Shown here piece after piece: positions 40,098 through 61,959 of a stretch of 64,000 nt of DNA. The number at the start of each line of letters is the position of its first letter. Positions within the stretch are counted from its first letter, which is position 1. Under the pieces are notes generated by a model. The model searched no databases and was not told the DNA's origin. It saw only the letters and a list, made by a program, of their open reading frames with translations. The DNA comes from Candidatus Daviesbacteria bacterium (GTDB lineage Bacteria > Patescibacteriota > Microgenomatia > Daviesbacterales > UBA10151), in contig DAIDIY010000048.1 in the NCBI GenBank assembly GCA_027451625.1, positions 26,917 through 90,916 on the forward strand, written 5' to 3'. The translations under genes and the position numbers were made by a program.

Positions 40098-42041
40098 ATG
40101 ATTCCCATTAAAAAGTACTTAAAAGTATCTGCTATATTAATCGTTCTTATGATGTTTTTTTCGATCTTTCCCAAAAAAGTTAAAGCTGATAATAATTTTA
40201 GTTATTCTCAATACTTTGGGACTCTCAATCAAATCTCAACTTCTGGAATAAAGGTTACAATTACAAATAATGCTGGCGACTTTGCATCTGGTTCAGATAT
40301 TTCTTATGCATGGGGTTTGTCTTATAATGGATCCCCGATTGATGTAGAAAACTCTATTCCCCAGATAAGTGGTAACACAATTACTGTTGATATTTATTCA
40401 TCATATTTTCAATGGTACGGCGCTGGGAACTACCAATTTTCATTATGGGTTGGAAAGTTTGGACAACCTCCTGATTATAATTCATCAAGTGCAAGTTATA
40501 TTATTCACAATAAAACAATCGTCTTCAAACAAGTTTGTCCTTCCAATACAGGATGTAGTGATGATGCGACTTTTAGCAACAACTCTTCTCCAATAAAAGT
40601 AGTTATTGGAGAAAATACAATGCCTAAGATAACAGTCAACAACCTTTATGATTACAATAGCTATTATTTTTGGTGGATTGATGGAAATAATAATTTAGAA
40701 AATTCTGGTTATAGCCTTGTAAATCCAGGTGAACAAACCGAACAAGTAGTAGGGGTTAACGCACCCAATTCTTTGCTTTCAAATGCATATGAAAATAGTA
40801 GCAATGCAAAATCTGTGACTTTATATCTTTGTATAACAACAGATTCGACAGGCATTCCTCCAACTTCTTCTGGATGTATAAATAAACAACAATTTGAATT
40901 TGATCCTCCATCAATCTACCCCTACCCCAACCCCATACAGATAAATCAACCTGCACAAGTATTAATCAGTTTTGGGGGAGTAGGAACTAATTACACATTC
41001 GTGCCGACATCTGGGTTCGGGTATCTCCTAAACTCAAACTCTCCAACACGAGATGGATCCTTTGTGATCCCAATAGGCACATTTTCTCAACCGGGGAATC
41101 CTTCATATTGTATGATTATAAATTCTGGAGCAAATCAAATAGGCGATGATCAAAATTGTCAATTTAAAGTAACATTTAATGTTCAGGCGTCTCCAAGCAC
41201 ATCTACAAATCTTCCTTGTGGACCCACAAGTTCGGCTTCTATATCTTTATACTCAGATGGTCAACAAACATCAACTCTAGAAATAAACAAATCAGGGAGT
41301 ATTGACTGGAATAATATTTGCATTCCCTCTCCGCAAGATGTAATTAAAATCTTTAAAACAGATTCTTCTGGGAATAATTTAGGTGACCCAGTCTTTTATA
41401 CCTATGTTGATTGTAAAAATGTGACAACAGGGCAACAAGACGATCCAAACATAGGTGATAGTCCCCTACCTTCAGGAAATTGTTCAGTAGGACCTTTTAC
41501 AGACACAGGAAACTATAAAGCTTATTATGTGTCTATTTTCTATCAAAACAACCCTCTAGCTTCTTTTCCATTCGTAGTTACCTTACCTAATACGCCTACA
41601 GTAACTACATCTCCTCAGTCTTTAACATCAGCTCCTCCTGCTCCAGTTGTTTCTAATTCTACCGGACAATTATGTAATGTAAAAACAGGTAAGTATTATA
41701 ATGGCTCACCAAGTAACCCAACTCCTCTGACTTTAGACGATATACCAAATCCAGCAGATAGAGGAGTTTATACTGCAGTAGGATGTGTTCCAACAGATCC
41801 AGCTATTTTTATAAATAACCTATTAAGAGTAGCAATTGGAGCGGGAGGTGGAATAGCACTTCTACTTATGGTAAGAGGTGTGTTTGAGATTATGGGTTCA
41901 GCTGGCAATCAAGAAGCAGTACATAAAGGTCGAGATCAACTTATTTCAGCGGGTATTGGACTCCTATTTATAATTTTTGCAGTCCTCCTTCTCAAATTCA
42001 TCGGAATTAATATATTGCAAATTCCGGGATTTTCTTCTTAA
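40098..42041 (+). CDS. large secreted Ser/Thr/Asn-rich protein ending in a VirB2/TrbC-like pilin module (pilin-fusion adhesin candidate)
   Basis: Signal peptide MIPIKKYLKVSAILIVLMMFFSIFPKKVKA. About 560 aa of low-complexity extracellular sequence. C-terminal 75 aa (LRVAIGAGGGIALLLMVRGVFEIMGSAGNQEAVHKGRDQLISAGIGLLFIIFAVLLL) has the same helix/GxxxE charged loop/helix pattern as the next four genes. Confidence 0.55.
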   Translation: MIPIKKYLKVSAILIVLMMFFSIFPKKVKADNNFSYSQYFGTLNQISTSGIKVTITNNAGDFASGSDISYAWGLSYNGSPIDVENSIPQISGNTITVDIYSSYFQWYGAGNYQFSLWVGKFGQPPDYNSSSASYIIHNKTIVFKQVCPSNTGCSDDATFSNNSSPIKVVIGENTMPKITVNNLYDYNSYYFWWIDGNNNLENSGYSLVNPGEQTEQVVGVNAPNSLLSNAYENSSNAKSVTLYLCITTDSTGIPPTSSGCINKQQFEFDPPSIYPYPNPIQINQPAQVLISFGGVGTNYTFVPTSGFGYLLNSNSPTRDGSFVIPIGTFSQPGNPSYCMIINSGANQIGDDQNCQFKVTFNVQASPSTSTNLPCGPTSSASISLYSDGQQTSTLEINKSGSIDWNNICIPSPQDVIKIFKTDSSGNNLGDPVFYTYVDCKNVTTGQQDDPNIGDSPLPSGNCSVGPFTDTGNYKAYYVSIFYQNNPLASFPFVVTLPNTPTVTTSPQSLTSAPPAPVVSNSTGQLCNVKTGKYYNGSPSNPTPLTLDDIPNPADRGVYTAVGCVPTDPAIFINNLLRVAIGAGGGIALLLMVRGVFEIMGSAGNQEAVHKGRDQLISAGIGLLFIIFAVLLLKFIGINILQIPGFSS

Positions 42042-42102
42042 TAAAATACTAATTTCTCTTTACTGTCTTGCCTAGAAAAATTTAAAAGATTAGTATGTTC
42101 TT

Positions 42103-42786
42103 ATGTTATCATTTTTGAGTAATACAGCTTACGCTCAGACATTAAAAATTCCTGGACTAGATCAAATTAAAGGTCCCCTAACTAATACAAATCGACCTTT
42201 TGATACTCCGGGAGGAGTTATCACAACAGGTTTAGATATTTTTTTTACAGTCATGACTTTTATTGCCTTTTTATGGATGATCTGGGGAGCTATTGCATAC
42301 ATATTTGCTGCTGGGGAGAAGGAAGCATTATCTAAAGCTAAAAATCGAATATTCGCTGCTTTAATAGGATTGTTTATAATTGCTTTATCTTATACAGCCA
42401 CCCAATTAATTTTTCAAATACTACAGCCTAATGTTCCTAATCCACTATCTCTTAGCATTATTCAACCTGTTTATGCACAAGCATCAACAGGTTATGGTTC
42501 AGATTTGAGTAAAACATATGCTTTTGGTAATTTCTTAGATTTTGGTAGCATTACTGCATTAATTATGCCTTTTATTTTCTCTATAGCTACTACTGGAGTA
42601 GTTATATACTTTCTAATTGGAGCTTTTAGATTTGTTATCTCAGCTGGTAATAAAGAATCAATAAGTAAAGCACAGTCAATGATTACCCATGCAGTAATTG
42701 GATTCTTTATTTTGATATTTATTTTTCTGATATTTCAATTTATTCCGCAATTTTTCGGTTTTAAGTTTAGTGTATTTGGCCAGTAG
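42103..42786 (+). CDS. VirB2/TrbC-like pilin-fold protein, internal tandem duplication (two modules)
   Basis: Module 1 FFTVMTFIAFLWMIWGAIAYIFAAGEKEALSKAKNRIFAALIGLFIIALSY. Module 2 FIFSIATTGVVIYFLIGAFRFVISAGNKESISKAQSMITHAVIGFFILIFIFLIF. Confidence 0.55.
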   Translation: MLSFLSNTAYAQTLKIPGLDQIKGPLTNTNRPFDTPGGVITTGLDIFFTVMTFIAFLWMIWGAIAYIFAAGEKEALSKAKNRIFAALIGLFIIALSYTATQLIFQILQPNVPNPLSLSIIQPVYAQASTGYGSDLSKTYAFGNFLDFGSITALIMPFIFSIATTGVVIYFLIGAFRFVISAGNKESISKAQSMITHAVIGFFILIFIFLIFQFIPQFFGFKFSVFGQ

Positions 42787-42834
42787 TTAACTTAAATATT
42801 TTATAAACAAAAATGTTAAGATTTAAAATCTAAA

Positions 42835-43371
42835 ATGACAAAAAAACTTTTAGTTTTATCTGTTTTTATAGTAGTCTTTTTTTTGGCTATTCCAAACAAC
42901 GTTTATGCTTGCAGTGGGCCTGGAGATTGTCCTGCTGGTGAATATTGCAACACTAGTAACCCTCCGGGAGAATGCCAGTCTGTCTTAGGACATATTAGTC
43001 CTCCCCAAGCTATTTCGAATATAGGTTACGGGTCTCAGGGTATTGGACACTTCTTAAGCCAGCTTATTCAACTTTTATATGTTGCTGCAGCAATTGTCTT
43101 TGTTTTTATGATCCTTTGGAGTGCATTTCAATGGATAATGTCAGCAGGAGATAAAGAAAAGCTAAACGCAGTAAGGAGCAGAATGATACATGCTATTATC
43201 GGTATAGCTCTTCTTGCAGCCGCTTTTGTAATAATTAGATTTTTCGGACAGGTTACAGGGTTTCATTTCTTCCAAGGACAAGAAAATCCAGACTTCTCTC
43301 TTCCTACACCTACTCCTTGTTTAATGTTTGTTCCAGGAGCAGGTCAATTGACTCCTCAGCCTTGTTCCTAA
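42835..43371 (+). CDS. VirB2/TrbC-like pilin-fold protein with Cys-rich N-terminal segment
   Basis: Signal peptide; CSGPGDCPAGEYCNTSNPPGEC; then LLYVAAAIVFVFMILWSAFQWIMSAGDKEKLNAVRSRMIHAIIGIALLAAAFVII. Confidence 0.55.
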   Translation: MTKKLLVLSVFIVVFFLAIPNNVYACSGPGDCPAGEYCNTSNPPGECQSVLGHISPPQAISNIGYGSQGIGHFLSQLIQLLYVAAAIVFVFMILWSAFQWIMSAGDKEKLNAVRSRMIHAIIGIALLAAAFVIIRFFGQVTGFHFFQGQENPDFSLPTPTPCLMFVPGAGQLTPQPCS

Positions 43372-43450
43372 ATTAAGTTTATATGCCTAATCTTTAGGTT
43401 CACTAGGACGAACTATTGACAAGGTACGTTAATCAATCTAAGATTAAATC

Positions 43451-43804
43451 ATGACTCCTACACCTACAGAATCACCAGCAACCACCATAGCAATTCAACC
43501 CCCAAGTGGTGTTGGAATAAGTCCTACTTATTCTATTAGCAGTTTATTCCACAATATCATAGGTTTATTTTTCGTAGTAGGTGCAATACTTGTAATATAC
43601 AATTTAATCATGGGTGCTTTTGATTGGATATTATCAGGTGGAGATAAGGAAAAAATAAGTGCTGCGAGAAATAAAATTATAAATGCTTTAATTGGTTTTG
43701 CCATACTTGCCGTTGCTTTTGTAATACTCAACTTTACTGGAAAATTAATTAATATTGATATTTCAAATCTTAATGTACCTAAATTAGGAAATCCTCCCTC
43801 TTAA
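43451..43804 (+). CDS. VirB2/TrbC-like pilin-fold protein
   Basis: IIGLFFVVGAILVIYNLIMGAFDWILSGGDKEKISAARNKIINALIGFAILAVAFVIL. Confidence 0.55.
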   Translation: MTPTPTESPATTIAIQPPSGVGISPTYSISSLFHNIIGLFFVVGAILVIYNLIMGAFDWILSGGDKEKISAARNKIINALIGFAILAVAFVILNFTGKLINIDISNLNVPKLGNPPS

Positions 43805-43870
43805 ATTTCTTCAACGATATAAACTAAGTTAGTTGTCAAAAATAAATATCTAATTTATTATTATTGTGAT

Positions 43871-44179
43871 ATGCAAGCCGCAGCAGGAATCGAGGATTTA
43901 CAAGCTTTAATTCAAAGAATTCTAGGATTAGTAGTAATTGGAGCATTCTTAGTTCTCTTATTCCTCTTCCTTTCAGCTGGATTCAAATATTTAACTTCAG
44001 GAGGAGAACCCAAAGGAGTTCAGTCAGCCCATAACACATATACATGGGCATTAATAGGTATCGCCCTTTTACTAATCGTATTTGTAGCCTTACGGTTAAT
44101 TTCTTCCTTTACCGGAGTAGATGTTACCAAGTTTTGTTTAGGTTTCCCTGGCTTGGAGAGTACTACTTCATGCTTTTAA
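43871..44179 (+). CDS. VirB2/TrbC-like pilin-fold protein
   Basis: LVVIGAFLVLLFLFLSAGFKYLTSGGEPKGVQSAHNTYTWALIGIALLLIVFVAL. Confidence 0.5.
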   Translation: MQAAAGIEDLQALIQRILGLVVIGAFLVLLFLFLSAGFKYLTSGGEPKGVQSAHNTYTWALIGIALLLIVFVALRLISSFTGVDVTKFCLGFPGLESTTSCF

Positions 44180-46797: not shown

Positions 46798-49110
46798 CTA
46801 ATGATGTCTCGCAGCAGGGGCGCTACCCATTGATGACCTAATCATAGCCCATATAAGTTCGAATAAGACGCCTCTTAAATTTAACCTTGTTGCAAGAATA
46901 TCTAGAGCGATCAATGATTCAAATCCTTTATTCTCAATGACTTTATCCCAGGCATTTCTAATTTCAGTTTCATCAAGTCTCATCTGTCGCCCTCTTTGAG
47001 CAACCATTAAATCCAGAGAAGACATCGAAGGTCTGGCGATATGCATGACGTGCTGACCCTCGTGAGTCTGCTCAAATCCTGCTAAATTAACCAGCATGTT
47101 CCGTATATTGCTAAACTGACCTGCACCTTGGTTAAAAAACAATCCCCCAAATTTAACCATTCCTTCTTCGCTGGGATTTGCTAAATAACCTTCACCTGAC
47201 TCTGCTTGTGACCTTATCTGATCAGGAATCAGAACCCGAGGAGCTAGTTTAAAAGAAGGTCCTTCAATAAGCTTAAAATCAAAAAGTCTAATTCTACCAT
47301 CATCAGATTTAAATGCCGAATTTATTGATGAATCCTCTATTACTTCTTCAATAAAGCTTTTCCTTTCTTTCAGATCATCTGGAGATATATTTAAAGAATT
47401 AAGATCTTCTATACGAAAAATTGTATTTTGTAAAGATAAAGATATACCTGAAGGCCATTTATAATCACCCCCATCCATTCTTCCTTTCACACCAAATATA
47501 GCATAGGTATAATTGGCTGCCATCTCAGCAGGATTCTTTTTACCAGCAACTGCAAACCTTTTTGATAAACTTTTATATAAGTCTTCAGGCAAAAGACTAA
47601 AAAAATCTCTATTATTAAAATCTACACCTTTTACTAATTCATAATACATTCTATATTTTGAATGTCCAGCACGATATCCTAATCTTGCTTTAATATTTAA
47701 ATTTCTAGCAGTATAAGAACCAGTGCCTTCCATCTCTACTCCGTACCAATCTAAGCTTCTTCCTGTATTTAAAAATTTAATCATTTCCTCTTCAGCTTTT
47801 GGATCATTGGGATCAAAAATGCGAGTAACTCCCTTTTCATCCACTCCAACCAATTTTTCATGATAATATTTTCTAAAATCCATCTCCCATTTTCTCTCAG
47901 CTATTCTCATAGCTGACTCTAAAGCAGCTTTCATATAAAATGCATGTCTGCTTTTCTCTTTATCAGATAGGTCTTTATCCGGTCTCCCTTTCTCCCAATT
48001 AGCAAAAACCTCATTTTCTATCTCTTCTCTCATCTTCTCCTTTGCACTGTTATCTTTTTTAATAAAATCTCCAGCATGCCTTTCTAAAGCTTGATAGAAA
48101 TGGAACACTAGAAGAGGTGAATTATTAGTAAGGTCATAATTTTTTTTATTACCTTCCGAATCTTTATAGCTGAACTTATATGCATCAGGAGCATCGACCA
48201 TTAAAAAATTAAGCTGATCATTATATTGTGAACCTATCGCACCGACTATTCCTTGTGTGTCTTTAGCTTGATAAAACTGAACGTACGCTTGATGAAAATG
48301 AAGTCTCCTATAAAATTCTCTATACATTGCATCACCTAAATGCTTCAACCGATAGCGGCGTTCATCATACTCATCATCACTTTCTTCGTTTTGTATAGGT
48401 TCTCCATCAGGACCGGATCTTTCACCAGGCTTAAATTTAGGAACAACCTCTGTTGTTCCTGATCCAATAGATACAGTTTTTTCACCTAGACCGGGAAGTC
48501 TTATCTTTTCTTCTACTTTAAGACTTTGCATAAGAGGTAAAACCAAAATAAATTCATTCAATCTCCTCCTATTAGATTGATCTCCTTCGGGAGCTAGACT
48601 CGACTCAATTTTATTCAATAACTCTCTCATCTCCGCAATTTTTGCCTCATCATCTCTTGGAAGATAGATATCTCGCGGGTAACCCACTTCAGACACAATA
48701 GTAAATCTTTCCCATTCTCCCTCTCTCATCTCCTCTGCAGATTTTGTCGCTTCGGAAGAAATTGACCTCGTAAAAGATTGTGCTAAAGCGGAAGCCTGTT
48801 GTTGTCTTCTAAAAGCTTCTGTCAATCGTAACTGTATCTCACTTTGTGCTTGCTGTTGTATCTGTTGGCGTAAAGCTATATCTGCTTGCATTTGTTGCTC
48901 TGCAGTCATCTCACTCATTCGATTCCGATATTCAGGAGTAGAAGTATGTTGTTGATATAATTGATCCACTCTACTATTTAAACTCCCGAATGCATCAATA
49001 TTTTCAAAAGTTTCAGACTCCTCTCTCCCCACATTCTCTTGAGGATTAGTATGCTCTGCGGGGTTAGGTGGATTCGATTCAGGATTATCCATTGGTCGTT
49101 CTAAAGACAT
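46798..49110 (-). CDS. hypothetical large soluble protein (770 aa)
   Basis: Acidic, no TM, N-terminal coiled-coil or Gln-rich region. No recognisable catalytic motif. Sits on the opposite strand inside the T4SS-like locus. Confidence 0.4.
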   Translation of the reverse strand: MSLERPMDNPESNPPNPAEHTNPQENVGREESETFENIDAFGSLNSRVDQLYQQHTSTPEYRNRMSEMTAEQQMQADIALRQQIQQQAQSEIQLRLTEAFRRQQQASALAQSFTRSISSEATKSAEEMREGEWERFTIVSEVGYPRDIYLPRDDEAKIAEMRELLNKIESSLAPEGDQSNRRRLNEFILVLPLMQSLKVEEKIRLPGLGEKTVSIGSGTTEVVPKFKPGERSGPDGEPIQNEESDDEYDERRYRLKHLGDAMYREFYRRLHFHQAYVQFYQAKDTQGIVGAIGSQYNDQLNFLMVDAPDAYKFSYKDSEGNKKNYDLTNNSPLLVFHFYQALERHAGDFIKKDNSAKEKMREEIENEVFANWEKGRPDKDLSDKEKSRHAFYMKAALESAMRIAERKWEMDFRKYYHEKLVGVDEKGVTRIFDPNDPKAEEEMIKFLNTGRSLDWYGVEMEGTGSYTARNLNIKARLGYRAGHSKYRMYYELVKGVDFNNRDFFSLLPEDLYKSLSKRFAVAGKKNPAEMAANYTYAIFGVKGRMDGGDYKWPSGISLSLQNTIFRIEDLNSLNISPDDLKERKSFIEEVIEDSSINSAFKSDDGRIRLFDFKLIEGPSFKLAPRVLIPDQIRSQAESGEGYLANPSEEGMVKFGGLFFNQGAGQFSNIRNMLVNLAGFEQTHEGQHVMHIARPSMSSLDLMVAQRGRQMRLDETEIRNAWDKVIENKGFESLIALDILATRLNLRGVLFELIWAMIRSSMGSAPAARHH

Positions 49111-49255: not shown

Positions 49256-50629
49256 TTATCTAAATATTTTTTCCATACGTTCTTTTATTTTTACCATTCT
49301 AGCTGCTTCATCATATCTGGTTTGGCATTCTCTACAAATATTGCATTGTGCAACTTCTACACTTTTTTTTCCACAGCCATTAGTACAATCTCCAATTCTC
49401 CATACAAGCTCCGGATGAGAGATGTCTACCACATCATACACAGACCCTCCATTAATAAATGGTAAAATGTTTCGTCTCTCTAGACCAGAGTAATTAGTGA
49501 AAGATCGTCCTTTACTTAATAACTGTCTCTGTCCCCAATCTCCACAAAAATCACCATTAGAGCCGCTGTAAACCATTAATTCCGCTCCAATAAAAGATTC
49601 TTGATACCTTCTTCCTCCTAAGAGCTCTACCTCTCTGTTTTTTTCCAGCCAGTACATAGAAAGAGCTTCTTTAGTTGCGTTAATATATTCTTGACGGACT
49701 TTTGCCTGAAGTTCATCTGGGCTCTGACCGGATTCTATTCGTGACAAAATCCATTCAGCAACAGATGGAGCTGCAAATTCTTTTATTAGCTGATGTAATC
49801 TTTTATCTTGTACAGCTTGAATTGTATCTGCTGACAAGTTAAATATTTTGTTATCCTTTCCTGCTTCGTTTTTTGCCTCACCTAATAGCCTCCAGACTTC
49901 GCCGACGTTAAAATCGTATTTCGTTTTTGCAATTGTGGTCATAGATCTATCAAGGTCAGGTTTAATCTCCGATTCTTTATCTATAAAAAACTCAGTCCCG
50001 ACTTTCTTAAGGAAGATATTAAACGCATCCCTCTGCAAATCCATTTTGAAATCATATACCACCATTCTTCGGGCTTCTCCTTCTCCGTAAATTTTTGCCA
50101 TATAGGCATATCCATAGCTACCGTTATACTTTTGGATAAGAGGGTCTTCCCAATCTTCAGCTTTTAAACTCCCCCAAAACAGCACATTCTCATCTTGGCT
50201 GTTTAGAAACTGATTTCTAACTTCTGTCATTGCTGTCCGGTCCAAACTTCTTCTCCAATCAGAAAATGTACTTAAAACATCTTTTTCTAAAAACAAATAC
50301 TCTGGAGCAGTCATGTACGGTTCTGTTGTTTGTGAATAGCGTGCCTTGATATATGTATGTTGAGGTGGAGTCAATTGAAGTCTTACTCTCGATTCAGTAT
50401 CAAAAATAAAATTACCGTTCTCCTTTTCAGAAGATATTTTTTCAGTTATTAAACCTACCCCATCATTTATAAGAGATGTTCTAACTACATTTCTAGCTCC
50501 GTTTGAACCCAGCTTCTGAACAGCTTCTTGATATAAATGATAGTATCTACTGACGTCAAAGACTCTCAGGTCTGAAGTTGATGTATAAGTGTGTTGAAAA
50601 TCAGCTAAAGATGATAAAGTTCGTTCCAT
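49256..50629 (-). CDS. hypothetical protein with C-terminal Cys4 zinc-ribbon
   Basis: 457 aa; C-terminal CTNGCGKK...CNICRECQ (CxxxC...CxxC). Co-directional with the 770-aa gene. Confidence 0.4.
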   Translation of the reverse strand: MERTLSSLADFQHTYTSTSDLRVFDVSRYYHLYQEAVQKLGSNGARNVVRTSLINDGVGLITEKISSEKENGNFIFDTESRVRLQLTPPQHTYIKARYSQTTEPYMTAPEYLFLEKDVLSTFSDWRRSLDRTAMTEVRNQFLNSQDENVLFWGSLKAEDWEDPLIQKYNGSYGYAYMAKIYGEGEARRMVVYDFKMDLQRDAFNIFLKKVGTEFFIDKESEIKPDLDRSMTTIAKTKYDFNVGEVWRLLGEAKNEAGKDNKIFNLSADTIQAVQDKRLHQLIKEFAAPSVAEWILSRIESGQSPDELQAKVRQEYINATKEALSMYWLEKNREVELLGGRRYQESFIGAELMVYSGSNGDFCGDWGQRQLLSKGRSFTNYSGLERRNILPFINGGSVYDVVDISHPELVWRIGDCTNGCGKKSVEVAQCNICRECQTRYDEAARMVKIKERMEKIFR

Positions 50630-50988: not shown

Positions 50989-52146
50989 ATGGATGCACAT
51001 CCTGTCCCACAAAATGTGACTTCTTTTGAGTTCCACCTGGTTGGAGATATGACTCTAAAGCAATTTGGATATCTTGCAACGGGGTTAATTATTGCCTATA
51101 TCACATTCTTATTTTTTTTTAATAACCTTCCGTATGTAGCAACTCCAATTATTGCTATCTCTGCTGGATTAGGAGCAGCTTTTGCCTTTTTGCCCATCTA
51201 TAATCGTCCTTTAGATCACTGGGTAAACGTCTTCTTTCATGCTATATTCTCTCCTACCCAGAGAGCATGGAGAACCCCAACAGACAAACCAATACCAAAT
51301 GACCTAAGAGCTGAATTAATTAAAAACCGCCTTCATCTTTTTATGCAAAGCACTGCCATACCCCAATCCTCCTATGGAACACCATTTCCTTCTAACTCTG
51401 CATCTATTAATTTAAGACGTCTACCTATAAATACCCACCCAAACTTAAATTTTCCTTCACACCCTAACTCTTCTAATAAACCTGAACCATCTCAAAATCA
51501 AACCTTAAAACCGACTAAAACAGGCTCGACAACCTCTAAGATGCCTACCCCTGAGGAACTAAACCACTTAGTAGAAATGGCCCGACAGACCCAAATGCTT
51601 CAGAGTAAAACTCTCGAATTGGAAAAAGAGCTCTCCCAACTTAAGTCTTTGCTTGCATTACAATCTACAAAAGGATCTTCTCCTGTTCAGCTGTCACAAA
51701 CAGGATCAGTAGTTCAGCAAGCTGGATCACAATTAAATCAATTGCAAAAACAGGCCATACAAGTTGCACAGCAAAAAGTTCAACCTCCAATCCCTAACCC
51801 AACTCCTCCTGCTAAACCCCCTAAAGTCGTGATAATAGAGCCTCCAAAACAAACAAAAACAGTAATTGCCTTAACATCGCTACCCAATATTATTAACGGT
51901 ATTATTACAGATACAGTCGGAAATTATCTCGAAAATGTAATTGTCATAATTCATAATCAGGATAACCTACCAGTCAGGGCTTTAAAAACCAATAAACTTG
52001 GCCAGTTCACAGGAGCCACGCCGTTACCTTCTGGTGTTTACACTATTACAATGGAAAAGGAAGGATTTGATTTTGACACATTACAAATAACTCTAAACAA
52101 CCAGATTGTTCCACCAATTAAAGTTACGGCAAAAAAAGGAGGTTAA
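50989..52146 (+). CDS. VirB10/TrbI-like architecture: TM anchor, Pro-rich linker, coiled-coil, C-terminal beta domain
   Basis: Two TM helices (aa 35-75); Pro-rich aa 100-290; coiled-coil (LEKELSQLKSLLALQ); C-terminal domain GIITDTVGNYLENVIVIIHN...GVYTITMEKEGF resembling a carboxypeptidase-regulatory or Cna-B-like beta-sandwich. Directly precedes VirB4. Confidence 0.35.
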   Translation: MDAHPVPQNVTSFEFHLVGDMTLKQFGYLATGLIIAYITFLFFFNNLPYVATPIIAISAGLGAAFAFLPIYNRPLDHWVNVFFHAIFSPTQRAWRTPTDKPIPNDLRAELIKNRLHLFMQSTAIPQSSYGTPFPSNSASINLRRLPINTHPNLNFPSHPNSSNKPEPSQNQTLKPTKTGSTTSKMPTPEELNHLVEMARQTQMLQSKTLELEKELSQLKSLLALQSTKGSSPVQLSQTGSVVQQAGSQLNQLQKQAIQVAQQKVQPPIPNPTPPAKPPKVVIIEPPKQTKTVIALTSLPNIINGIITDTVGNYLENVIVIIHNQDNLPVRALKTNKLGQFTGATPLPSGVYTITMEKEGFDFDTLQITLNNQIVPPIKVTAKKGG

Positions 52147-53136
52147 ATGTTCTCTACTCAACAAGCTATATTAATCGAGGACATTAAAGATGATCTAATA
52201 TTTTTAAAAGATGGCGGCGCATCCTTAATTCTCAATACTACTGCTGTTAATTTCGGTTTACTTTTTGAGACAGAGCAAATGGCTATTATCGATGCTTTCG
52301 CTCAACTGTTAAACTCTCTTTCATTCCCAATACAAATTGTTATTCGCTCAAAAAAAATGGATATCTCTTCATACCTTAGCACACTTGAGAGAGCTTTAAA
52401 GTCACAAACTAACCAACTCCTCGCTCAACTAACTCTAGATTACCGGAATTTTGTTGAAGGATTAATTAAGGAAAACGATGTACTCGATAAACAATTCTAT
52501 GTTTGCCTTTATGTTTCAGCAATCGAAATGGGAATTTTACCTAAACAACAAACTGATAGGAGTAGAAAAGCTAAAGCAATGCTAGAAACAAGAAGAGATT
52601 TAATATTAAGGCAACTGAACAGAATTGGGCTCAAAGCGAGACAGCTTGCAACAGCTGAGTTAATTAATCTCTTTTATGATATCTATAACCCAGATAATTG
52701 GTACTTCTCCACTGATGACGAAAGTGTAGTCGATCCTGAAGCAGAAAGAAAAGAAAACGAATTACAAACGTCAACTCCCAACATACCTTCACAACTCAAA
52801 CGAATTGTTCCTCAAACACCTATTGTTCAACACACACTTCAAAGTAACCTCCAATTAAGACCGATACCTCAACTCGTTCAACATCAATCACATCTAGAAC
52901 CTAGATCTCCACTACAACAAAATTCTACCCCTCTTTCTCAAAACAACCCACAAGCTACAAATATATTTCAAAAACCTCAAATTCCATTTCAAATACCAGT
53001 TAATGGGCCTACAGTAAATCCTTTACCTCCAATAAAACAAAATCCACCAAATAGCCAACAGCCATCGCAGAACAATTCGATAAATAGGGCCTCTCCGTTT
53101 ATAGTTGAAGAACTAAAAGATGACTTTGGATCCTAA
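52147..53136 (+). CDS. VirB4/TrbE/CagE N-terminal domain protein (first part of a split VirB4) with Gln/Pro-rich tail
   Basis: N-terminus AILIEDIKDDLIFLKDGGASLILNTTAVNFGLLFETEQMAIIDAFAQLLNSLSFPIQIVIRS matches the VirB4/CagE_TrbE_VirB N-domain. Residues ~230-329 are Q/P-rich. Overlaps the next ORF by 17 nt in another frame. Confidence 0.6.
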   Translation: MFSTQQAILIEDIKDDLIFLKDGGASLILNTTAVNFGLLFETEQMAIIDAFAQLLNSLSFPIQIVIRSKKMDISSYLSTLERALKSQTNQLLAQLTLDYRNFVEGLIKENDVLDKQFYVCLYVSAIEMGILPKQQTDRSRKAKAMLETRRDLILRQLNRIGLKARQLATAELINLFYDIYNPDNWYFSTDDESVVDPEAERKENELQTSTPNIPSQLKRIVPQTPIVQHTLQSNLQLRPIPQLVQHQSHLEPRSPLQQNSTPLSQNNPQATNIFQKPQIPFQIPVNGPTVNPLPPIKQNPPNSQQPSQNNSINRASPFIVEELKDDFGS

Positions 53137-54850
53137 ACCTAAAATAGATCTTACATTGCAAGATGTCGTTGCCCCTGCTGAATGGGAGGTAGATTTTTCA
53201 CACCTACGGATCAATCAAACTCTTTTTAGAAGCTTTATAGTTACTTCATATCCAAGATTCGTTGATCCAAATTGGTTAGAACCACTAATTGCGTTTGACC
53301 ATTCACTTACCATTTCTATGTTTATTTATCCAACTAACTCCGCTGGTGTTATGGATGACTTAAAAAGAAAAATTGCAGAGATGGAGGCAACTCTCCAATC
53401 AGATTTAGATAGAGGCAGAGCTGTTGATCCGTCTGTTGAAGTTGCCTTAGAAGACGCAGAAGCTCTACAAGACCAATTGGCAAGAGGTACAGAGAGATTC
53501 TTTCAATATTCTTTGTATGTAACAGTACCTGCAAAAAATAAAACTGAACTTAATAACATATCACAGCTTGTAACATCAACTTTGAGAAGCATTTCAATTA
53601 CGGCATATCCATCTGTTTTGGAAATGGAAGATGGTTTCAAGTCAACTCTTCCAGTAGGAGAAGATATGCTATATGTTCCTCATAATATGGATACCACTTC
53701 TTTAGCCACTACGTTTCCATTTACTTCCTCTGAATTAACATCGCCCCAAGGAGTAGTTTATGGAATTAATGAGCATAATGATTCCTTAATAATCTTTGAT
53801 AGATTCAGCCAAGAAAATGCTAATTCAACAATTCTTGCTACCTCTGGAGCTGGAAAATCGTATCTGGTCAAACTAGAAACACTGCGATCTCTAATGTTAG
53901 GTACAGAGGTCATTGTTATTGATCCTGAGCGTGAATACTTAAAACTTGCTCAAGCTGTCGGAGGAGATTATATAAATTTCTCCACGAACTCTCCCATAAA
54001 GATTAATCCATTTGATCTTCCAGAAGTCGCAGACCAAGGAGAAAACGAACTGGGGAGAAAGATACTGTCATTAAGTGGCTTCCTAAAACTAGTATTAGGA
54101 GAACTTACCCCCCAAGAGTCAGCCATTTTAGATCGAGCTTTAAATACTACATATAGAATTAAAGGTATTACTGAAGATACTAGAACACAAATGGGAAAAA
54201 AGGATACTGAAATGCCACTAATGGAAGATCTATATAAAGTACTTTTGGGCATGGAGGATCAAGTATCAACAGGACTGGCGGTCCGACTTGAAAGATTCAT
54301 CAGAGGATCGCTTGCGGGAATTTTCTCTGCTCCATCAAATTTAAGAATTTCCAACCTACTGACAATCTTTTCTGTCCGTGATTTACCAGAACAACTTCGG
54401 CCTCTAGCAATGCATCTAATTTTAGATTACATTTGGACTAAGATTAGGAAGGAACAAAAAAAGCGGATATTGGTTGTTGATGAAGCATGGTATCTGATGA
54501 AATATCCTGACTCTGCCAGCTTTCTAGTTGAAATGGTAAAAAGGGCTAGAAAGTATTTTCTTGGAGTAACTACAATCAGCCAGGATGTTGAAGATTTCTT
54601 AGAAAGAGATCATGGAAAAGAGGTTATCTCAAACTCATCAATGCAAGTTTTACTTAAACAAGCGCCTGCATCAATTGAAAGGATAGGTGAAACATTCAAT
54701 CTCTCTCAAGGAGAAAAAAGGCTATTACTTTCATCTGGAGTCGGACAGGGCTTATTTTTTGCTGGTAATACTCATGTCGCGATGAGAGTAGTTGCTTCTC
54801 CAAAGGAACACCAATTAGTTACAACTAATCCCACTGAATATCAAAACTAA
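53120..54850 (+). CDS. virB4: VirB4-family type IV secretion ATPase (C-terminal catalytic part)
   Basis: Walker A ILATSGAGKSYLVK; Walker B RILVVDEAWYLM; downstream GVTTISQDVEDF; upstream FRSFIVTSYPRFVDPNWL. Confidence 0.8.
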   Translation: MTLDPKPKIDLTLQDVVAPAEWEVDFSHLRINQTLFRSFIVTSYPRFVDPNWLEPLIAFDHSLTISMFIYPTNSAGVMDDLKRKIAEMEATLQSDLDRGRAVDPSVEVALEDAEALQDQLARGTERFFQYSLYVTVPAKNKTELNNISQLVTSTLRSISITAYPSVLEMEDGFKSTLPVGEDMLYVPHNMDTTSLATTFPFTSSELTSPQGVVYGINEHNDSLIIFDRFSQENANSTILATSGAGKSYLVKLETLRSLMLGTEVIVIDPEREYLKLAQAVGGDYINFSTNSPIKINPFDLPEVADQGENELGRKILSLSGFLKLVLGELTPQESAILDRALNTTYRIKGITEDTRTQMGKKDTEMPLMEDLYKVLLGMEDQVSTGLAVRLERFIRGSLAGIFSAPSNLRISNLLTIFSVRDLPEQLRPLAMHLILDYIWTKIRKEQKKRILVVDEAWYLMKYPDSASFLVEMVKRARKYFLGVTTISQDVEDFLERDHGKEVISNSSMQVLLKQAPASIERIGETFNLSQGEKRLLLSSGVGQGLFFAGNTHVAMRVVASPKEHQLVTTNPTEYQN

Positions 54851-54855: not shown

Positions 54856-57387
54856 ATGGCTCAAGATACGGAACAAAAGCAAGATCTTTCAGACTTAGAG
54901 CAAGCCTTAAGTTGTGTAAACCCCTTTCGTCGTAAAACTTTACAAGTACTCTACAAATCACATCCTAAAACATATCAAAAGATAATTGAACAAACAATTA
55001 AGATTTTAATTAAAAATGAACCTTCTTTAAAAAATATTTTTGAATATTTACATAAACAGGAAAATGGTAATGAAATCTTTTTAAATCATCTTTACAAAGA
55101 TAATTTCTACTACACAAATCTTTGGAAAAAAGCTCATCCCGACCTGACTAGTCAGGGGGTTATAAATAATAAAATTGAAGAAATAAATAAAACAGCCATC
55201 GCAACTCGAGAACAAAAACAAAAGGTTTTGTCCGAAAAAAGTGTTTTTGAACCTCTCAATATCCAAAATGAGGTAAAAAATACAGATACAAAGAAAAATG
55301 TTCAGACAGAAAAAGAAGAAACATCGAAGGCCAGCCGACCTCCATCTCAACCCGAAAAAATTTTGTCTGGATCTAAAAAAACAACTCTTCCTAATGCTGC
55401 TTTCCCTCCTTATTCAGCAGCTCCTATAACTAACCCCGTTAACCAAACCTCAGATTCCCTTATAGACTCATCAAAAATTTCTCCCTCGGAAGATAAGATA
55501 TCCAGAGAAGCTAATATTAATATAGTCCCAATAGACCTTCAGGAAATAACCGTTCCAAAGGTTGCCCCATTAATTTCTTCTACTAAAAAAGTTGCTGGGT
55601 CCTCAGTTACCAAAAACATTCTTTCCAATGCAGCTATCTTAATAAAAAAAACAGTTGGTAAGATTTTGATCCCTGAAAACATTATTTATTTGCCCGCTGT
55701 TTTAGCCAGCGCTGCTGTAGGTGGAGCAGCTGCACCTATTATAGGTATCTCTCCAGCTGTTGGTATGGCCCTTGGCGGAGGTGCAGGCGCTACTATTATT
55801 CCGCAAGGTACTAAACGAGGTTGGTTTAACAACACCCTTAATATGGCTTTAAACTTTATACCGGGACCGGAGGGGACAGCAATTAATCTGGGAAGAAGAG
55901 TCTTAGGTAGCAGACTCGGAGTCAAGCAAGTTGCTCAAAAAGGTCTGATTGCATTTTTTAGTACTCCTCTTGGATGGGGAACTATTGGAGTTATTATTTT
56001 TTTATTTATCGTTATCTTAATTACCCAACAGAGCTCTGCCATGCTTCCTCCTTACCAGGTAGAAGGAATTTCTGAAGTCTCTGTGGCAAATTCCACACCA
56101 GGAGCTTCACTATCTCCAACAAACACTCCTGGCAGCGGAGAATCTCCAATTGGTTATGCTATACCCATAAGAGATACATCTGTTATTCCAAATACAAGTA
56201 ACACAATCGCACAAGCTGTTCAAAGTCTTTGTGGTGGTCAAGGGTATGGTGAGCCTCACTTGGAACTTTGGCAAGACCTCATTCAAGCAAGTGTTGATAA
56301 GGGTTGGAATCCATCATTTGTATCTGCGCTATGGATAGAAGAAACAGGTGCTCAATGTCCTGCTGTATATGACGATGCAGTAGGGTGTGGAAATGATCCA
56401 AATAAAAGTTCTCCTGATGCAAAAAAACGATTATTTAATTATGCTCTACCTTGTTTAGATAGTTTTTTTACTAATTGGTTTCCGAGAGGTTATAGTAATG
56501 ATCAGTTTCAAAAATTTATGTGTATTTATGCTGATGGCCCTAGCGGGTATCCGGCATGTAACTCCTCAAAATATACTGGGTTTATTTCTAGAGTAAGTTA
56601 TTGGTATACAAAACTATCTGGAAATAATTCTAGTATATCTCCTACCCCCACAACAGAATCTATCCCAAACGATATTACAGGGAAAATAAACACTATAAAT
56701 CAGCAATTTCATATCGATTTTAGTAAGTTTGATTTTCAGAGTGCGGGGTTAACTACATCTCAATATAACCAAGATCTTCAATGGGCCTGGGCGGATTTAA
56801 ATCTTGCAAAACAAGTTGCTCCTAAATTTGATACACTTCTTGGAAATGTACAGATAGAACTAGGATCCCTGCCGTATAATTACAGGAGCGGCCAAACTGT
56901 TAACTTCTCTAAAAACTACTATTTCTTCACTACAGAAAATTTTTTCAAACAGAATTTCATTCACGAGTTAACCCATGTTATAAACGATGGCCAACCTGGA
57001 AAATATGGAGTCGATTTATGGAACCAAGCCATCACAAAAGAAGGATACATTAGTCAATACTCTTCCGCTGCCACCCCTGGAGATGTTTCTCAAATTTGTA
57101 CATATAGTTATCCATTAGCAGATGAAGAACAATATATGTCAGCTGGAAACACAAACCCAAACGATACAATCCTTCAATACATTGATGCAAGAGACGACGA
57201 GGATTTCTCAGAATCTGTAGCTTATTATATTACCAGCTTTTATGATCCTCCTATTGTAGAAATGCCTTATGGTAACAGCGCTACAAGTCCTTCCTGTGCA
57301 GGTGTAGAAAATTCTACCAATCCGTTTACTGGTGGAGGGCACCCCTACCATACAGAATTTATAAAAAAGATATTAGGCGGGCAGTAA
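54856..57387 (+). CDS. large multi-domain protein: Gly-rich TM segment, lysozyme/transglycosylase-like region and HExxH metallopeptidase-like motif (candidate T4SS-associated cell-wall hydrolase or effector)
   Basis: 843 aa. Central Gly/Ala-rich hydrophobic block (AAVGGAAAPIIGISPAVGMALGGGAGA), then ITQQ. GQGYGEPHLELWQDLIQASVDKGWNPSFVSALWIEETG resembles lysozyme/SLT-type active-site regions. FIHELTHVINDG carries HExxH. Confidence 0.35.
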   Translation: MAQDTEQKQDLSDLEQALSCVNPFRRKTLQVLYKSHPKTYQKIIEQTIKILIKNEPSLKNIFEYLHKQENGNEIFLNHLYKDNFYYTNLWKKAHPDLTSQGVINNKIEEINKTAIATREQKQKVLSEKSVFEPLNIQNEVKNTDTKKNVQTEKEETSKASRPPSQPEKILSGSKKTTLPNAAFPPYSAAPITNPVNQTSDSLIDSSKISPSEDKISREANINIVPIDLQEITVPKVAPLISSTKKVAGSSVTKNILSNAAILIKKTVGKILIPENIIYLPAVLASAAVGGAAAPIIGISPAVGMALGGGAGATIIPQGTKRGWFNNTLNMALNFIPGPEGTAINLGRRVLGSRLGVKQVAQKGLIAFFSTPLGWGTIGVIIFLFIVILITQQSSAMLPPYQVEGISEVSVANSTPGASLSPTNTPGSGESPIGYAIPIRDTSVIPNTSNTIAQAVQSLCGGQGYGEPHLELWQDLIQASVDKGWNPSFVSALWIEETGAQCPAVYDDAVGCGNDPNKSSPDAKKRLFNYALPCLDSFFTNWFPRGYSNDQFQKFMCIYADGPSGYPACNSSKYTGFISRVSYWYTKLSGNNSSISPTPTTESIPNDITGKINTINQQFHIDFSKFDFQSAGLTTSQYNQDLQWAWADLNLAKQVAPKFDTLLGNVQIELGSLPYNYRSGQTVNFSKNYYFFTTENFFKQNFIHELTHVINDGQPGKYGVDLWNQAITKEGYISQYSSAATPGDVSQICTYSYPLADEEQYMSAGNTNPNDTILQYIDARDDEDFSESVAYYITSFYDPPIVEMPYGNSATSPSCAGVENSTNPFTGGGHPYHTEFIKKILGGQ

Positions 57388-57866: not shown

Positions 57867-58967
57867 TTAGCTTAAGTTAATCGGCATAATAATATATTCA
57901 AGACTTGAGTCCTGCAAAGGCCTAACCAAAACAGCAGACAAGGAGCCAGAAAGCTGCATCTCTACTTCCGAATCAGGGAATGCGCCTAAGACATCCATCA
58001 AAAATTTTGCATTAAAAGCAATCTGAATCTCTTCTCCTAATACTTTGGCTGAAATTTCTTTTTTTTGGCCACCCAATTCTTTAGTCTCAGAGGTTAAGGT
58101 AATACCTTGGTTTCCCACAAAAAACTTTATAACATTAGCCTCTCCTCGAGCAAAAACAGAAGCCAACTTGACAGCCTTTAGAAGCTCATTTCTATCAAAA
58201 TTTACTGTTGTTTTTTTGTCAGTAGGTATAATTTTCTCCCAGGAAGGAAATTGTCCTTCAATCAAGCGTGATGAAAGTTTGGTATTACCAAAGCTAAAAA
58301 TTATTTGATTCTGATTATCAGAGGTTGAGATATTAACTTGCAGAGGTTTCTCTTCCGAAATTAATCTCAAGATTTCTTCTAAAGTTCTTCTTGGCACAAG
58401 AGCCTTAAAAGAGGAATCTTCATCAATCTCTACAACCTTGTGTGCTAATCTATACCCGTCAGTGGCCACAAACTGAAGTTTTTTATCTTTTATTTCAGTC
58501 AACACCCCAGTCAGAACTGGCCTTCCTTCATCCAAAGCCGAAGCAAAACTAACCTGAGGCAGACATGAATGGAGTGTATCTGCTTTCACTAGCGCAGTCT
58601 CTTTACCGCTTAAAGGAATCGCAGGAAACTCAGACGAGTCAATTCCATTAATAGTTGAAGAGAATGTTGGAGTTTTTATTTCCATTAAATTTGAATTAGC
58701 TGTAAATTCTATCTTTTCTCCTTGTAAATTAGAAACTAAATCCACAAGAGTACGTGCTGGCACACTAACAGCTCCTTCCTCGATAACTTCAGTCTTTATT
58801 GTTCTTACAACACCTACCTCTAAGTTTGTCGCTGAAACTTTCAGAGAGCCACTCTCTGCCTCTATAAGTATATTTCCCAGCACAGGAAGTTGAGCTTTCA
58901 TCCCCACAGATCTTGATGCTGAGTTTAATATGGGCATTATGTCTTGTTGAAGAATCGAAAATTTCAT
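57867..58967 (-). CDS. dnaN: DNA polymerase III beta sliding clamp
   Basis: N-terminus MKFSILQQDIMPILNSASRSVG...QLPVLGNILIEA and three-domain length (366 aa); downstream of dnaA. Confidence 0.9.
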   Translation of the reverse strand: MKFSILQQDIMPILNSASRSVGMKAQLPVLGNILIEAESGSLKVSATNLEVGVVRTIKTEVIEEGAVSVPARTLVDLVSNLQGEKIEFTANSNLMEIKTPTFSSTINGIDSSEFPAIPLSGKETALVKADTLHSCLPQVSFASALDEGRPVLTGVLTEIKDKKLQFVATDGYRLAHKVVEIDEDSSFKALVPRRTLEEILRLISEEKPLQVNISTSDNQNQIIFSFGNTKLSSRLIEGQFPSWEKIIPTDKKTTVNFDRNELLKAVKLASVFARGEANVIKFFVGNQGITLTSETKELGGQKKEISAKVLGEEIQIAFNAKFLMDVLGAFPDSEVEMQLSGSLSAVLVRPLQDSSLEYIIMPINLS

Positions 58968-58975
58968 TTTTTAAA

Positions 58976-59431
58976 TCATTGTTCTTTTCGTTGTGCGGAT
59001 ACAAACTTCTGAATCTCTTCCTCTCTAACTCTTATCAGACGAAAACTAACTCTTCCGCTTTGTATTAGGTTTTTAATGTGTTTTTCTTCTTCTGTCAAGA
59101 GAGCAGAATCTCCTGATTTAACCTCAATAAAATCTATCCTATCGTTATTTTTAATACCAATGAAGTCAATCGGCCAACCTAAAGGAACAATTCGATCGTA
59201 GTCGTAGCGCAGTTCAGCATAGGTTAGAAGTTCGGCCATTTTTCCTTTTTGTGGATTAATTGAACCTTGAATTGTTTGCAAAATCTTTACTGGAAGTTCC
59301 TGAACTCCACGATAAAGATCTATTAAATCTGTGGGGATATCTCCTCTTGGTTTTTGATGAACCCTTCCTAAAAGATATGCAATAAGTAAAGCAGATGCTC
59401 CAAGAAGACAATAAACTATTATTGGATTCAT
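58976..59431 (-). CDS. membrane-anchored PD-(D/E)xK-like nuclease-fold protein (YraN/Hjc-like), hypothetical
   Basis: N-terminal TM; core GWPIDFIGIKNNDRIDFIEVKSGDSALLTEEEK shows a D...(D/E)VK arrangement typical of the restriction-endonuclease-like fold. Confidence 0.35.
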   Translation of the reverse strand: MNPIIVYCLLGASALLIAYLLGRVHQKPRGDIPTDLIDLYRGVQELPVKILQTIQGSINPQKGKMAELLTYAELRYDYDRIVPLGWPIDFIGIKNNDRIDFIEVKSGDSALLTEEEKHIKNLIQSGRVSFRLIRVREEEIQKFVSAQRKEQ

Positions 59432-59439
59432 TGATTTGA

Positions 59440-59702
59440 TTATAACATGTGTTATTAAGTTATCCCCTATGGTTTGTTCTATTTTTTATTTATATATTAA
59501 ACAATAGTCGTATTAATAAGCGGGGTTGATATGTGGAATTTATAAAGTGAGCAGGCTTAAAATATGTGTGGATATCTTTTTAAAGCTAACTTAAATGTTT
59601 ATAGATTTTTTGATCTTGGTTTTTGGGTTTGATTAGTGTGTATAAAACAGGACCTTTTGTGGATAAGTTTGTGGATAAGTTGATAAGTATTTGTGGATAG
59701 TT
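59440..59702. promoter_or_regulatory. oriC candidate: DnaA-box cluster plus AT-rich unwinding region
   Basis: Perfect TGTGGATAA at 59658-59666 and 59670-59678; TGTGGATAG at 59692-59700; TGTGGATAT at 59567-59575; TGTGGAATT near 59532. AT-rich tract 59585-59640. Confidence 0.7.
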
Positions 59703-61022: not shown

Positions 61023-61041
61023 CCAGCAATATTAGTGTAAA

Positions 61042-61050
61042 AGTTATCCA
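61042..61050 (+). promoter_or_regulatory. consensus DnaA box (TTATCCACA) in the dnaA upstream/rpmH divergent intergenic region
   Basis: Exact 9-mer match, 20 nt upstream of the dnaA start on the opposite strand. Confidence 0.6.
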
Positions 61051-61246
61051 CATTAAATAGGGGTAAAATACTACATAATAGGTCAGGACTTGTTACGGTA
61101 GAGTTTTAAAGAGAATTAGTTAGTATTAACATGCAAAAGCTATTATGGGAAGGTCTTTGTAAATTTACTTTTGGAAGCATCTGTTTTGACAGATATCAAC
61201 AGAGTCATTGAATTTTAGTTTAAAAATTAGTAAACTTCTTTCTACA

Positions 61247-61390
61247 ATGGCTAAAACTAAAAGGACCTACCAACCAAAGAAAATGAAACGTTTGCGGAAA
61301 CACGGGTTTTTAGAACGAAATTCTACTAGGGATGGTCGAAAAGTAATGAAGAGGCGAATTGCTAAAGGGCGAAGTAGAATTACTATTTAA
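61247..61390 (+). CDS. rpmH: 50S ribosomal protein L34
   Basis: [47 protein letters not shown] matches L34. Start taken at the internal Met. Confidence 0.85.
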
Positions 61391-61752
61391 TGCTATCAAA
61401 AGAAAAACGCCTTAATCTGAACTTAAGCTTCCGCTGGACAGCATCTGGAGAAAAAATATCACTTCCTTTTGTAAAGATATTTTATAGAACAGGTCATAAT
61501 AGTAACCCCCTTATAGGAGTATCTCTTTCAAAAACAAATTTTAAAACAGCCATTGAGCGTAATAGAGCGAAAAGGCTTTTAAGTGAAGCGTTTAACGAGC
61601 TTTACCCTAAAATAGAGCCTCATCTTAATATAGTAGCTATTCCCTATACTCAAGTGTTAAAATTATCTTCAAAAGAAATTCTGAAGGTTTTAAAAGATAA
61701 TTTTAATAGAAAAAGTTTATTGAGGATGTATAACGAAAGACCTTTTAAATAA
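61390..61752 (+). CDS. rnpA: ribonuclease P protein component
   Basis: RLNLNLSFRW...NPLIGVSLSK...AIERNRAKRLLSEAF (RNR motif); canonical position after rpmH. Confidence 0.8.
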   Translation: MLSKEKRLNLNLSFRWTASGEKISLPFVKIFYRTGHNSNPLIGVSLSKTNFKTAIERNRAKRLLSEAFNELYPKIEPHLNIVAIPYTQVLKLSSKEILKVLKDNFNRKSLLRMYNERPFK

Positions 61753-61758
61753 ATTGAA

Positions 61759-61959
61759 ATGAAAAGCTTAGTTGTTTTTGTTATTAATTTTTACCAATTT
61801 TTCCTTTCTTTTGATAGAGGGATGTTATCTGTTTTGGCTCCTGGTGGAGCTTGTAAATATTCCCCAACATGTTCTGAATATACAAAACAGATGATTCTAA
61901 AGTATGGTATCATAAAAGGCCTTATCCTTGGAGGAAAGAGAATTCTGTCATGTCGATAA
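61759..61959 (+). CDS. yidD: membrane protein insertion efficiency factor YidD
   Basis: CKYSPTCSEYTKQMILKYGIIKG matches YidD (CxFxPSCSxY...HG). Confidence 0.8.
   Translation: MKSLVVFVINFYQFFLSFDRGMLSVLAPGGACKYSPTCSEYTKQMILKYGIIKGLILGGKRILSCR

Follow-up and report, generated by a model that had tools for sequence, protein, structure and literature searches.

The division of one conserved ATPase between two overlapping open reading frames (ORFs) raises the question of whether the gene is broken, is joined by frameshifting or has been misassembled, or whether two genes are its normal state. This question is posed by a stretch of 64,000 nucleotides (nt) from a Candidatus Daviesbacteria bacterium (assembly GCA_027451625.1, contig DAIDIY010000048.1, positions 26,917 to 90,916 of the forward strand), hereafter the window, in which the coding region for VirB4, an ATPase of the type IV secretion system (T4SS), consists of ORF1, encoding 329 amino acids (aa), and ORF2, encoding 576 aa. 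The initial annotation of this locus named four possible explanations: a genuinely split two-subunit VirB4, programmed frameshifting, a recent inactivating frameshift and a sequencing error in a low-complexity stretch. It also recommended that orthologs be compared for fused and split forms and that slippery heptamers be sought. When the ortholog comparison was run, the split was found in all 77 of the relatives that could be compared, and the break point coincided with that between TrsD and TrsE of the Staphylococcus aureus plasmid pGO1. The separateness of the two genes, and with it the first of the four explanations, is strongly supported by these results.

Overall, it is very likely that ORF1 and ORF2 are the normal two-gene VirB4-type ATPase of the monoderm, pGO1-like T4SS of the Patescibacteria. 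The two would be translated as separate polypeptides from one operon, which also encodes a PrgI/VirB3-like protein upstream and an 843-aa protein downstream. ORF1 would supply the equivalent of the first ~185 residues of a fused VirB4, and ORF2 would provide the TrsE-like remainder, namely the second half of the N-terminal region and the ATPase domain. At the membrane, the two products may reassemble into a VirB4-like unit. Such a reassembly is suggested because the two proteins cover a single VirB4 model in complementary fashion and because one natural fusion of them exists. In addition, the overlap of stop and start probably couples the translation of ORF2 to that of ORF1, although this part of the proposal is held with less confidence than the two-gene arrangement itself. 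The features of the locus are collected in Table 1.

Table 1. Features of the split virB4 locus and its surroundings, in coordinates of the window.
Feature	Position	Strand	Remarks
Five VirB2-like T4SS pilin ORFs (647, 227, 178, 117 and 102 aa)	40098..44179	+	PF18895 matches
PrgI/VirB3-like membrane protein with Pro-rich linker and CarboxypepD_reg beta-sandwich	50989..52146	+	Stop abuts the ORF1 start
ORF1, TrsD-like protein, 329 aa	52147..53136	+	Homologue of the N-terminal ~185 residues of fused VirB4 proteins
Folded N-domain of ORF1, residues ~1-186	52147..52704	+	Hidden Markov model and BLAST matches; AlphaFold
Pro/Gln/Asn-rich hypervariable tail of ORF1, residues ~187-316	52705..53094	+	Probably disordered
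Conserved peptide P-F-I-V-E-E-L of ORF1	53095..53115	+	Codons 5-25 nt before the ORF2 start
Overlap of ORF1 and ORF2, 17 nt	53120..53136	+	ORF2 ATG within ORF1 codons GAT-GAC; runs to the ORF1 stop TAA
ORF2, VirB4/TrsE-type T4SS ATPase lacking the first N-terminal subdomain, 576 aa	53120..54850	+
ORF2 residues 1-203, second half of the classical VirB4 N-terminal region	53120..53728	+	Upstream of the 4AG5-like domain
ORF2 ATPase domain, residues 204-568	53729..54823	+	4AG5 match
Walker A, ATSGAGKS, ORF2 residues 240-247	53837-53860	+
Walker B, ILVVDE, ORF2 residues 450-455	54467-54484	+
843-aa protein	54856..57387	+	Begins 5 nt beyond ORF2; corresponds in position to trsF/trsG of pGO1
dnaN (-), Holliday-junction-resolvase-like endonuclease (-), dnaA (-), rnpA, yidC, jag/KhpB	57867-63287		After the T4SS operon

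The two open reading frames and their junction

The coordinates of the two ORFs given by the initial annotation were borne out: ORF2 begins 17 nt before the end of ORF1 and is read in another frame, which is +1 relative to that of ORF1 ((53120-52147) mod 3 = 1). The C-terminus of ORF1 reads ...PFIVEELKDDFGS*. In profile searches, ORF1 covers positions 2-188 of the conju_CD1110 model and ORF2 covers positions 184-734, so the two overlap at the seam by only 5 positions. The classical VirB4 N-terminal region is itself cut in two: positions 38-186 of the Pfam model TraC_F_IV are matched in ORF1 and positions 272-350 in ORF2 (residues 74-156). Thus, the break between ORF1 and ORF2 is within the VirB4 N-terminal region and not at the border between the N-terminal and ATPase domains.

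ORF2 scores 378.9 bits against NF045971 (conju_CD1110; cut-off 325, E = 5e-113) and 84.5 bits against Pfam P-loop_TraG (cut-off 25.8). Both the Walker A and the Walker B motif reported earlier for the 576-aa ORF were located. A sequence search matched the region that contains them to the solved VirB4 C-terminal domain 4AG5 (E = 2.7e-49), and a Foldseek comparison of the structural model of the concatenated pair with 4AG6 and 4AG5 gave an E-value of 1.7e-15 for the best chain and TM-scores, normalised to the target, of 0.65-0.78. By BLASTP, ORF2 residues 15-566 align to residues 36-626 of pGO1 TrsE (25% identity, E = 1e-48). Judged by model score, Walker motifs, predicted fold and its setting in a T4SS cluster, ORF2 is a predicted VirB4/TrsE-type T4SS ATPase.

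The relationships of ORF1 are more distant. Residues ~3-200 match, in each case significantly but under the curated cut-off, the VirB4-type models VirB4_plasma (E = 6e-10), conju_CD1110 (E = 2.4e-6) and TraC_F_IV (E = 5.9e-5) and also, with E = 2e-6, the TrsD/TraD family of stand-alone proteins. BLASTP aligned residues 3-185 to residues 33-220 of pGO1 TrsD with 22% identity (E = 2e-7), and the precomputed Pfam family on homologues of ORF1 is PF26593, 'TraC-like'. AlphaFold modelled residues 11-160 with alternating strands and helices, the predicted local distance difference test (pLDDT) score being ~64-94 per 10-residue block. A comparison of the ORF1 sequence with solved structures yielded no match at E-values up to 1. 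The initial annotation had described this region as a clear VirB4/CagE/TrbE N-domain. The homology is real, as the alignment to pGO1 TrsD indicates, but the word clear was generous given that every model score falls below its curated cut-off.

Conservation of the split among relatives

A homologue search was made in 5.8 billion proteins, and the best 120 matches of each ORF were considered. Every one of the 120 ORF1 homologues is a stand-alone protein of 222-405 aa, and every one of the 120 ORF2 homologues is 523-603 aa long. Those with a named source came mostly from Candidatus Daviesbacteria, and many of the ORF1 and ORF2 matches lay on a common contig.

The genomic arrangement was compared by fetching 80 species-level loci that carry a relative of ORF2 (59-77% identity), 77 of which included enough upstream DNA. 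The 80 loci came from Daviesbacteria, Gottesmanbacteria, Shapirobacteria, Roizmanbacteria, Beckwithbacteria and other Microgenomates-group bacteria. In all 77, the ORF1-type N-domain is encoded by a separate, stop-closed ORF directly upstream of ORF2, and in none of them are the two fused. In each of the loci examined, ORF2 possesses its own ATG, at or just before the point where homology starts. The identity to relatives ranges from 40 to 86% for the ORF1 N-domain and from 59 to 95% for ORF2, and internal stops are absent. Both genes are evidently under purifying selection. Taken together, this distribution shows the split to be, as judged by comparison of sequences, ancestral and kept by selection across the sampled Microgenomates-group lineages.

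The closest comparison is provided by an independent assembly, GCA_009712145.1 (locus L082), in which ORF2 is 95% identical and the gene order is the same as in the window, that is, a PrgI-like gene, a 325-aa ORF and the ATPase. The same 17-nt overlap is present in L082, and this geometry is also common to loci L001, L002, L006 and L008. The VirB4 ORF of L082 was called at only 523 aa (3723-5294), and after a gap of 164 nt comes a further ORF (5459-6187); the short form may reflect either a truncated C-terminus or a mistake in the L082 assembly.

Fused forms are rare. A representative library of 1.84 billion proteins contained 1,977 relatives of the ORF1 N-domain, and among the best 150 matches, which included 143 new representatives, a single protein (P0305, 787 aa) carries both the N-domain and the ATPase. 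P0305 joins the two parts by a linker of ~10 residues and lacks the tail that follows the N-domain in ORF1. It could be either a real re-fusion or the result of an indel in a junction with a 4-nt overlap.

The tail and terminal peptide of the TrsD-like protein

Beyond its folded domain, ORF1 continues into a Q/P-rich low-complexity region ending in EELKDDFGS, as had been noted at the outset, and its composition was confirmed (17% P, 16% Q and 11% N over residues ~187-313). The label of an insertion was, in contrast, not the most apt, because the stretch forms the C-terminal end region of a TrsD-like protein in its own right and is missing from the fused P0305. In 42 Daviesbacteria-like loci, the tail measures 45-157 aa, is rich in P, Q, T and A and is unalignable between genomes. 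In the AlphaFold model of the concatenated proteins, the pLDDT is below 50 over residues 172-332.

In contrast to the hypervariable tail, its end is nearly invariant. The peptide P-F-[VI]-V-E-E-L closes the tail in all 42 loci of this clade and is followed by 1-9 mostly acidic residues. The P, the F, the second V, both E and the L are each conserved at 98-100%, and V occupies the first hydrophobic position in 83%, with I or M in the others, while conservation at tail positions more than 2 residues before the motif does not exceed 48%. Synonymous variation occurs at every codon of the motif, including four Pro codons, four Val codons, both GAA and GAG, and five Leu codons. Additionally, the motif is retained in 12 loci whose ORF2 begins 30-182 nt beyond the stop of ORF1. 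Therefore, selection on the motif acts on the peptide and goes beyond any requirement of translation initiation at ORF2. Where the two ORFs overlap, the first Glu codon of the motif is found 10-29 nt before the ATG of ORF2 and the sequence there is often GGAGGA; a secondary role of the motif codons in ribosome binding is plausible from this arrangement.

A second clade of TrsD-like proteins (P0288-P0383) also carries low-complexity tails, which are 170-525 aa long, are rich in P, T, Q, A and S and end in L-P-P-L-P-E-I or P-P-I-[PA]-E-I. On the side of the ATPase, VirB4 begins, within its first 16 residues, with a basic peptide, for example M-K-L-P-N-L-F-K-K, in 29 of the 78 loci that include the window (L009-L042 and many of L043-L080). 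The window ORF2 (MTLDPKPK...) starts without it. This basic peptide might serve as the counterpart of the acidic C-terminus of the TrsD-like protein.

The function of the tail can be considered by analogy. The Pro/Gln-rich region might be a flexible tether that lets P-F-[VI]-V-E-E-L dock either on the ATPase or on a different T4SS partner, a proposal that has a reasonable chance of being correct but falls somewhat short of being probable. The fuller version, a 'tether and plug', is put forward still more tentatively. In it, a lineage-specific disordered linker and an invariant peptide (P-F-V-V-E-E-L in the Daviesbacteria-like clade, L-P-P-L-P-E-I in the second clade) would dock the detached N-domain on the VirB4 hexamer or recruit a partner, and the GTG-GAG-GAR codons (GGAGGA) would double as the ribosome-binding region of virB4 in most genomes. 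If true, this would constitute a previously undescribed element, with a role in assembly or regulation, of a T4SS that is essential in the sole cultivated relative tested. Whatever its partner, the terminal peptide on its tether offers a concrete, mutable handle on what TrsD does.

Alternative explanations and opposing evidence

The explanations that regard the split as damage have a negligible probability. Two overlapping ORFs do give the first impression of a recent inactivating frameshift, which would make virB4 a pseudogene in this genome, and this impression is the only point in favor of that explanation. Likewise, low-complexity DNA is error-prone, and an indel introduced there by sequencing or assembly could have made the split. 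The wide sharing of the split, with the same break point as in pGO1, rules against a recent mutation as well as an assembly error. Moreover, decay of the gene is at odds with the purifying selection on both halves and their lack of internal stops, and a TrsD homologue is essential in the cultivated relative Southlakia epibionticum ML1 (Quinonero-Coronel et al., 2025; PMC12102498). Concerning an indel, the junction itself is not of low complexity and aligns without gaps in four genomes (the window compared with L082, L002 and L006), all with the same 17-nt overlap. The tail, in turn, holds the ORF1 frame through to PFIVEEL, which a stray indel within it would destroy. Programmed +1 frameshifting at the ORF1 stop (GGA UCC UAA A) would yield a fused full-length VirB4, either in addition to the separate products or in place of them. 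Read by eye, a +1 slip after UCC in the window enters the ORF2 frame exactly (AAA CCU AAA...), and the UCC-stop context resembles the antizyme site, UCC-UGA. However, the relation of the frames is not conserved. Over 78 pairs, the window included, ORF2 is offset from ORF1 by +2 in 45, by +1 in 27 and by 0 in 6, and the junctions range from a 29-nt overlap to a 182-nt gap (52 overlapping, 11 with 0-10 nt between the genes and 15 with 23-182 nt). The commonest overlap is 4 nt (ATGA, 26 pairs), and the others are 1, 7, 8, 14, 17, 20, 26 or 29 nt. Among such relatives, a frameshift signal could therefore not persist. Furthermore, the ATG of ORF2 is conserved, the overlap contains no slippery heptamer of the type X XXY YYZ, a -1 slip would reach the wrong frame, and trsD and trsE of pGO1 are separate genes 14 nt apart. 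Frameshifting is thus considered very unlikely.

It is also conceivable that the genes are truly separate but that ORF1 is an independent accessory or adaptor protein, which would recruit substrates or partners via its tail and share with VirB4 only the ancestry of its N-terminus. A long tether with a conserved terminal peptide does resemble adaptor proteins, the AlphaFold model, built from an unpaired alignment, contains no confident packing of ORF1 on ORF2, and the TrsD homologues of Gracilibacteria are not adjacent to virB4 (PMC12102498). Against this stand the adjacency of the genes in all 77 comparable loci and their overlap in 52 of 78 pairs, the complementary coverage of a single VirB4 model, and the short linker by which P0305 connects both parts. 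An independent adaptor is accordingly regarded as unlikely, albeit less so than frameshifting.

Although the two-gene VirB4-type ATPase remains the preferred explanation, several observations weigh against it or against parts of it. The score of ORF1 against NCBIfam NF041427 (TrsD/TraD) is 27.7 bits where the cut-off is 200, with positions 15-200 of the 201 in the model covered. Because this score is so far under the cut-off, ORF1 is a distant relative of TrsD and lies outside the narrow staphylococcal subfamily. The structural models do not reveal how the halves fit together. AlphaFold was run on the concatenated ORF1 and ORF2 with an unpaired alignment bridged by the P0305 row, in which the ORF1 homologues had their tails wrongly aligned to columns of ORF2 around position 750. 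With this faulty alignment, which makes for a weak test, the individual domains were good, but the model as a whole had a pLDDT of 66 and a predicted template modelling (pTM) score of 0.49, the terminal peptide was undocked with a pLDDT below 50, and the overall arrangement was not superposable on full-length TrwK (root-mean-square deviation 16-24 Å). A Foldseek search of the Protein Data Bank confirmed the ATPase domain only, and when the concatenated pair was modelled without an alignment the mean pLDDT was 35.7. The physical complex of ORF1 and ORF2 is thus something that we infer from sequence. Finally, the ribosome-binding role of the motif codons is weakened by the window itself, whose Shine-Dalgarno-like sequence before ORF2 is weak (GAAGAA), and by the enrichment of GAG in the motif (69% vs a background of 39%), which is similar whether ORF2 starts near or far. 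The idea that the two Glu codons serve solely as a Shine-Dalgarno sequence was rejected for this last reason; it was not confirmed and is not needed.

Genomic context

The genes of the operon are tightly spaced, with intergenic distances of 0, -17, 5 and 22 nt. No terminator-like sites were found on the + strand between them, and promoter-like sites there occurred at chance level. The PrgI/VirB3-like gene upstream of the pair is also present in L082, and its position is that of trsC in pGO1. Its product possesses a Pro/Gln-rich linker of its own and a CarboxypepD_reg-type beta-sandwich, which is unusual for a VirB3-like protein and is the same in L082. Downstream, the 843-aa protein has no Pfam or NCBIfam match and contains hydrophobic Gly/Ala-rich segments. 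It may be a diverged fusion of the trsF (VirB6-like) and trsG (hydrolase) functions.

Further upstream, five consecutive ORFs match PF18895, three of them above the gathering score of 26.6 bits and two just under it. Three large ORFs separate this pilin array from the PrgI-like gene (45059-46792 on the + strand, 577 aa; 46798-49110 on the - strand, 770 aa; and 49256-50629 on the - strand, 457 aa), and none of them has a Pfam match at E-values up to 0.01. On the other side of the operon, the minimum of the cumulative GC skew, at ~58-60 kb, falls by dnaN and dnaA, and therefore the T4SS operon abuts the replication origin. Elsewhere in the window, eleven tRNA genes are spread over positions 9004-34936, including four for tRNA-Ser and two each for tRNA-Arg, tRNA-Met and tRNA-Ile (the latter with anticodons GAT and TAT).

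Comparison with known systems

The fused counterpart of the pair is the monoderm VirB4 of the CD1110 family. CD1110 is a single polypeptide, and ORF1 and ORF2 together cover positions 2-734 of the 752 in the family model (NF045971). For the tail, a possible analogy is offered by TraD, the coupling ATPase of the F plasmid, in which residues Asp710-Phe717 of a flexible C-terminal tail dock on TraM (PMC7555446). F TraD and the window ORF1, with its terminal ...VEELKDDFGS, both have a flexible extension that ends in a short acidic/aromatic peptide. However, F TraD belongs to the VirD4-type family and not to that of VirB4 or TrsD, and the likeness is a functional speculation that implies no homology.

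The closest plasmid-borne counterpart is found in pGO1, whose monoderm T4SS is of the MPF-FATA type and whose TrsD and TrsE correspond to TraD and TraE of pSK41. There, TrsD and TrsE are likewise encoded by adjacent genes with the same break point, and because ORF1 and ORF2 align collinearly to TrsD and TrsE, the break points are considered homologous. The gene order is also alike: trsC, trsD (227 aa), trsE (672 aa), trsF and trsG in pGO1 compare with the PrgI/VirB3-like gene, ORF1, ORF2 and the gene for the 843-aa protein in the window. Despite these similarities, the proteins share only 22-25% identity, the genes overlap in the window and do not in pGO1, and pGO1 is a conjugative plasmid while the system of the window is chromosomal and lies by the replication origin. 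Moreover, pGO1 TrsD ends ~7 residues past its folded domain and has neither the Pro/Gln-rich tail nor the PFVVEEL end, both of which are present in ORF1.

The T4SSs surveyed in Patescibacteria by Quinonero-Coronel et al. are the same system as that of the window. TrsD was the most abundant T4SS component in that survey, with 2,272 homologues, of which 1,664 were associated with virB4; VirB2-like pilin arrays were common in Microgenomatia, and the T4SS genes were often near dnaA, dnaN and rnpA (Quinonero-Coronel et al., 2025; PMC12102498). All of these elements recur in the window, where a TrsD-like protein and VirB4 are encoded side by side together with a PrgI/VirB3-like gene, a pilin array and dnaA, dnaN and rnpA nearby. 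In a search of that article for the terms disorder, low complexity and proline, none was mentioned for TrsD, and the conserved terminal peptide, with its disordered tether, adds a modest new lead to the survey. The split arrangement itself is already described for both Patescibacteria and pGO1, and the window is one more instance of it. This T4SS belongs to the small number of machines whose necessity for the epibiotic life of these ultra-small bacteria has been shown. Where virB4 is split in a patescibacterial genome, the two ORFs should be annotated as a pair, TrsD-like and VirB4, and not as a pseudogene, a frameshift or an assembly error. Between the pair in the window and the TrsD-VirB4 pairs of other Patescibacteria, there is no difference in kind.

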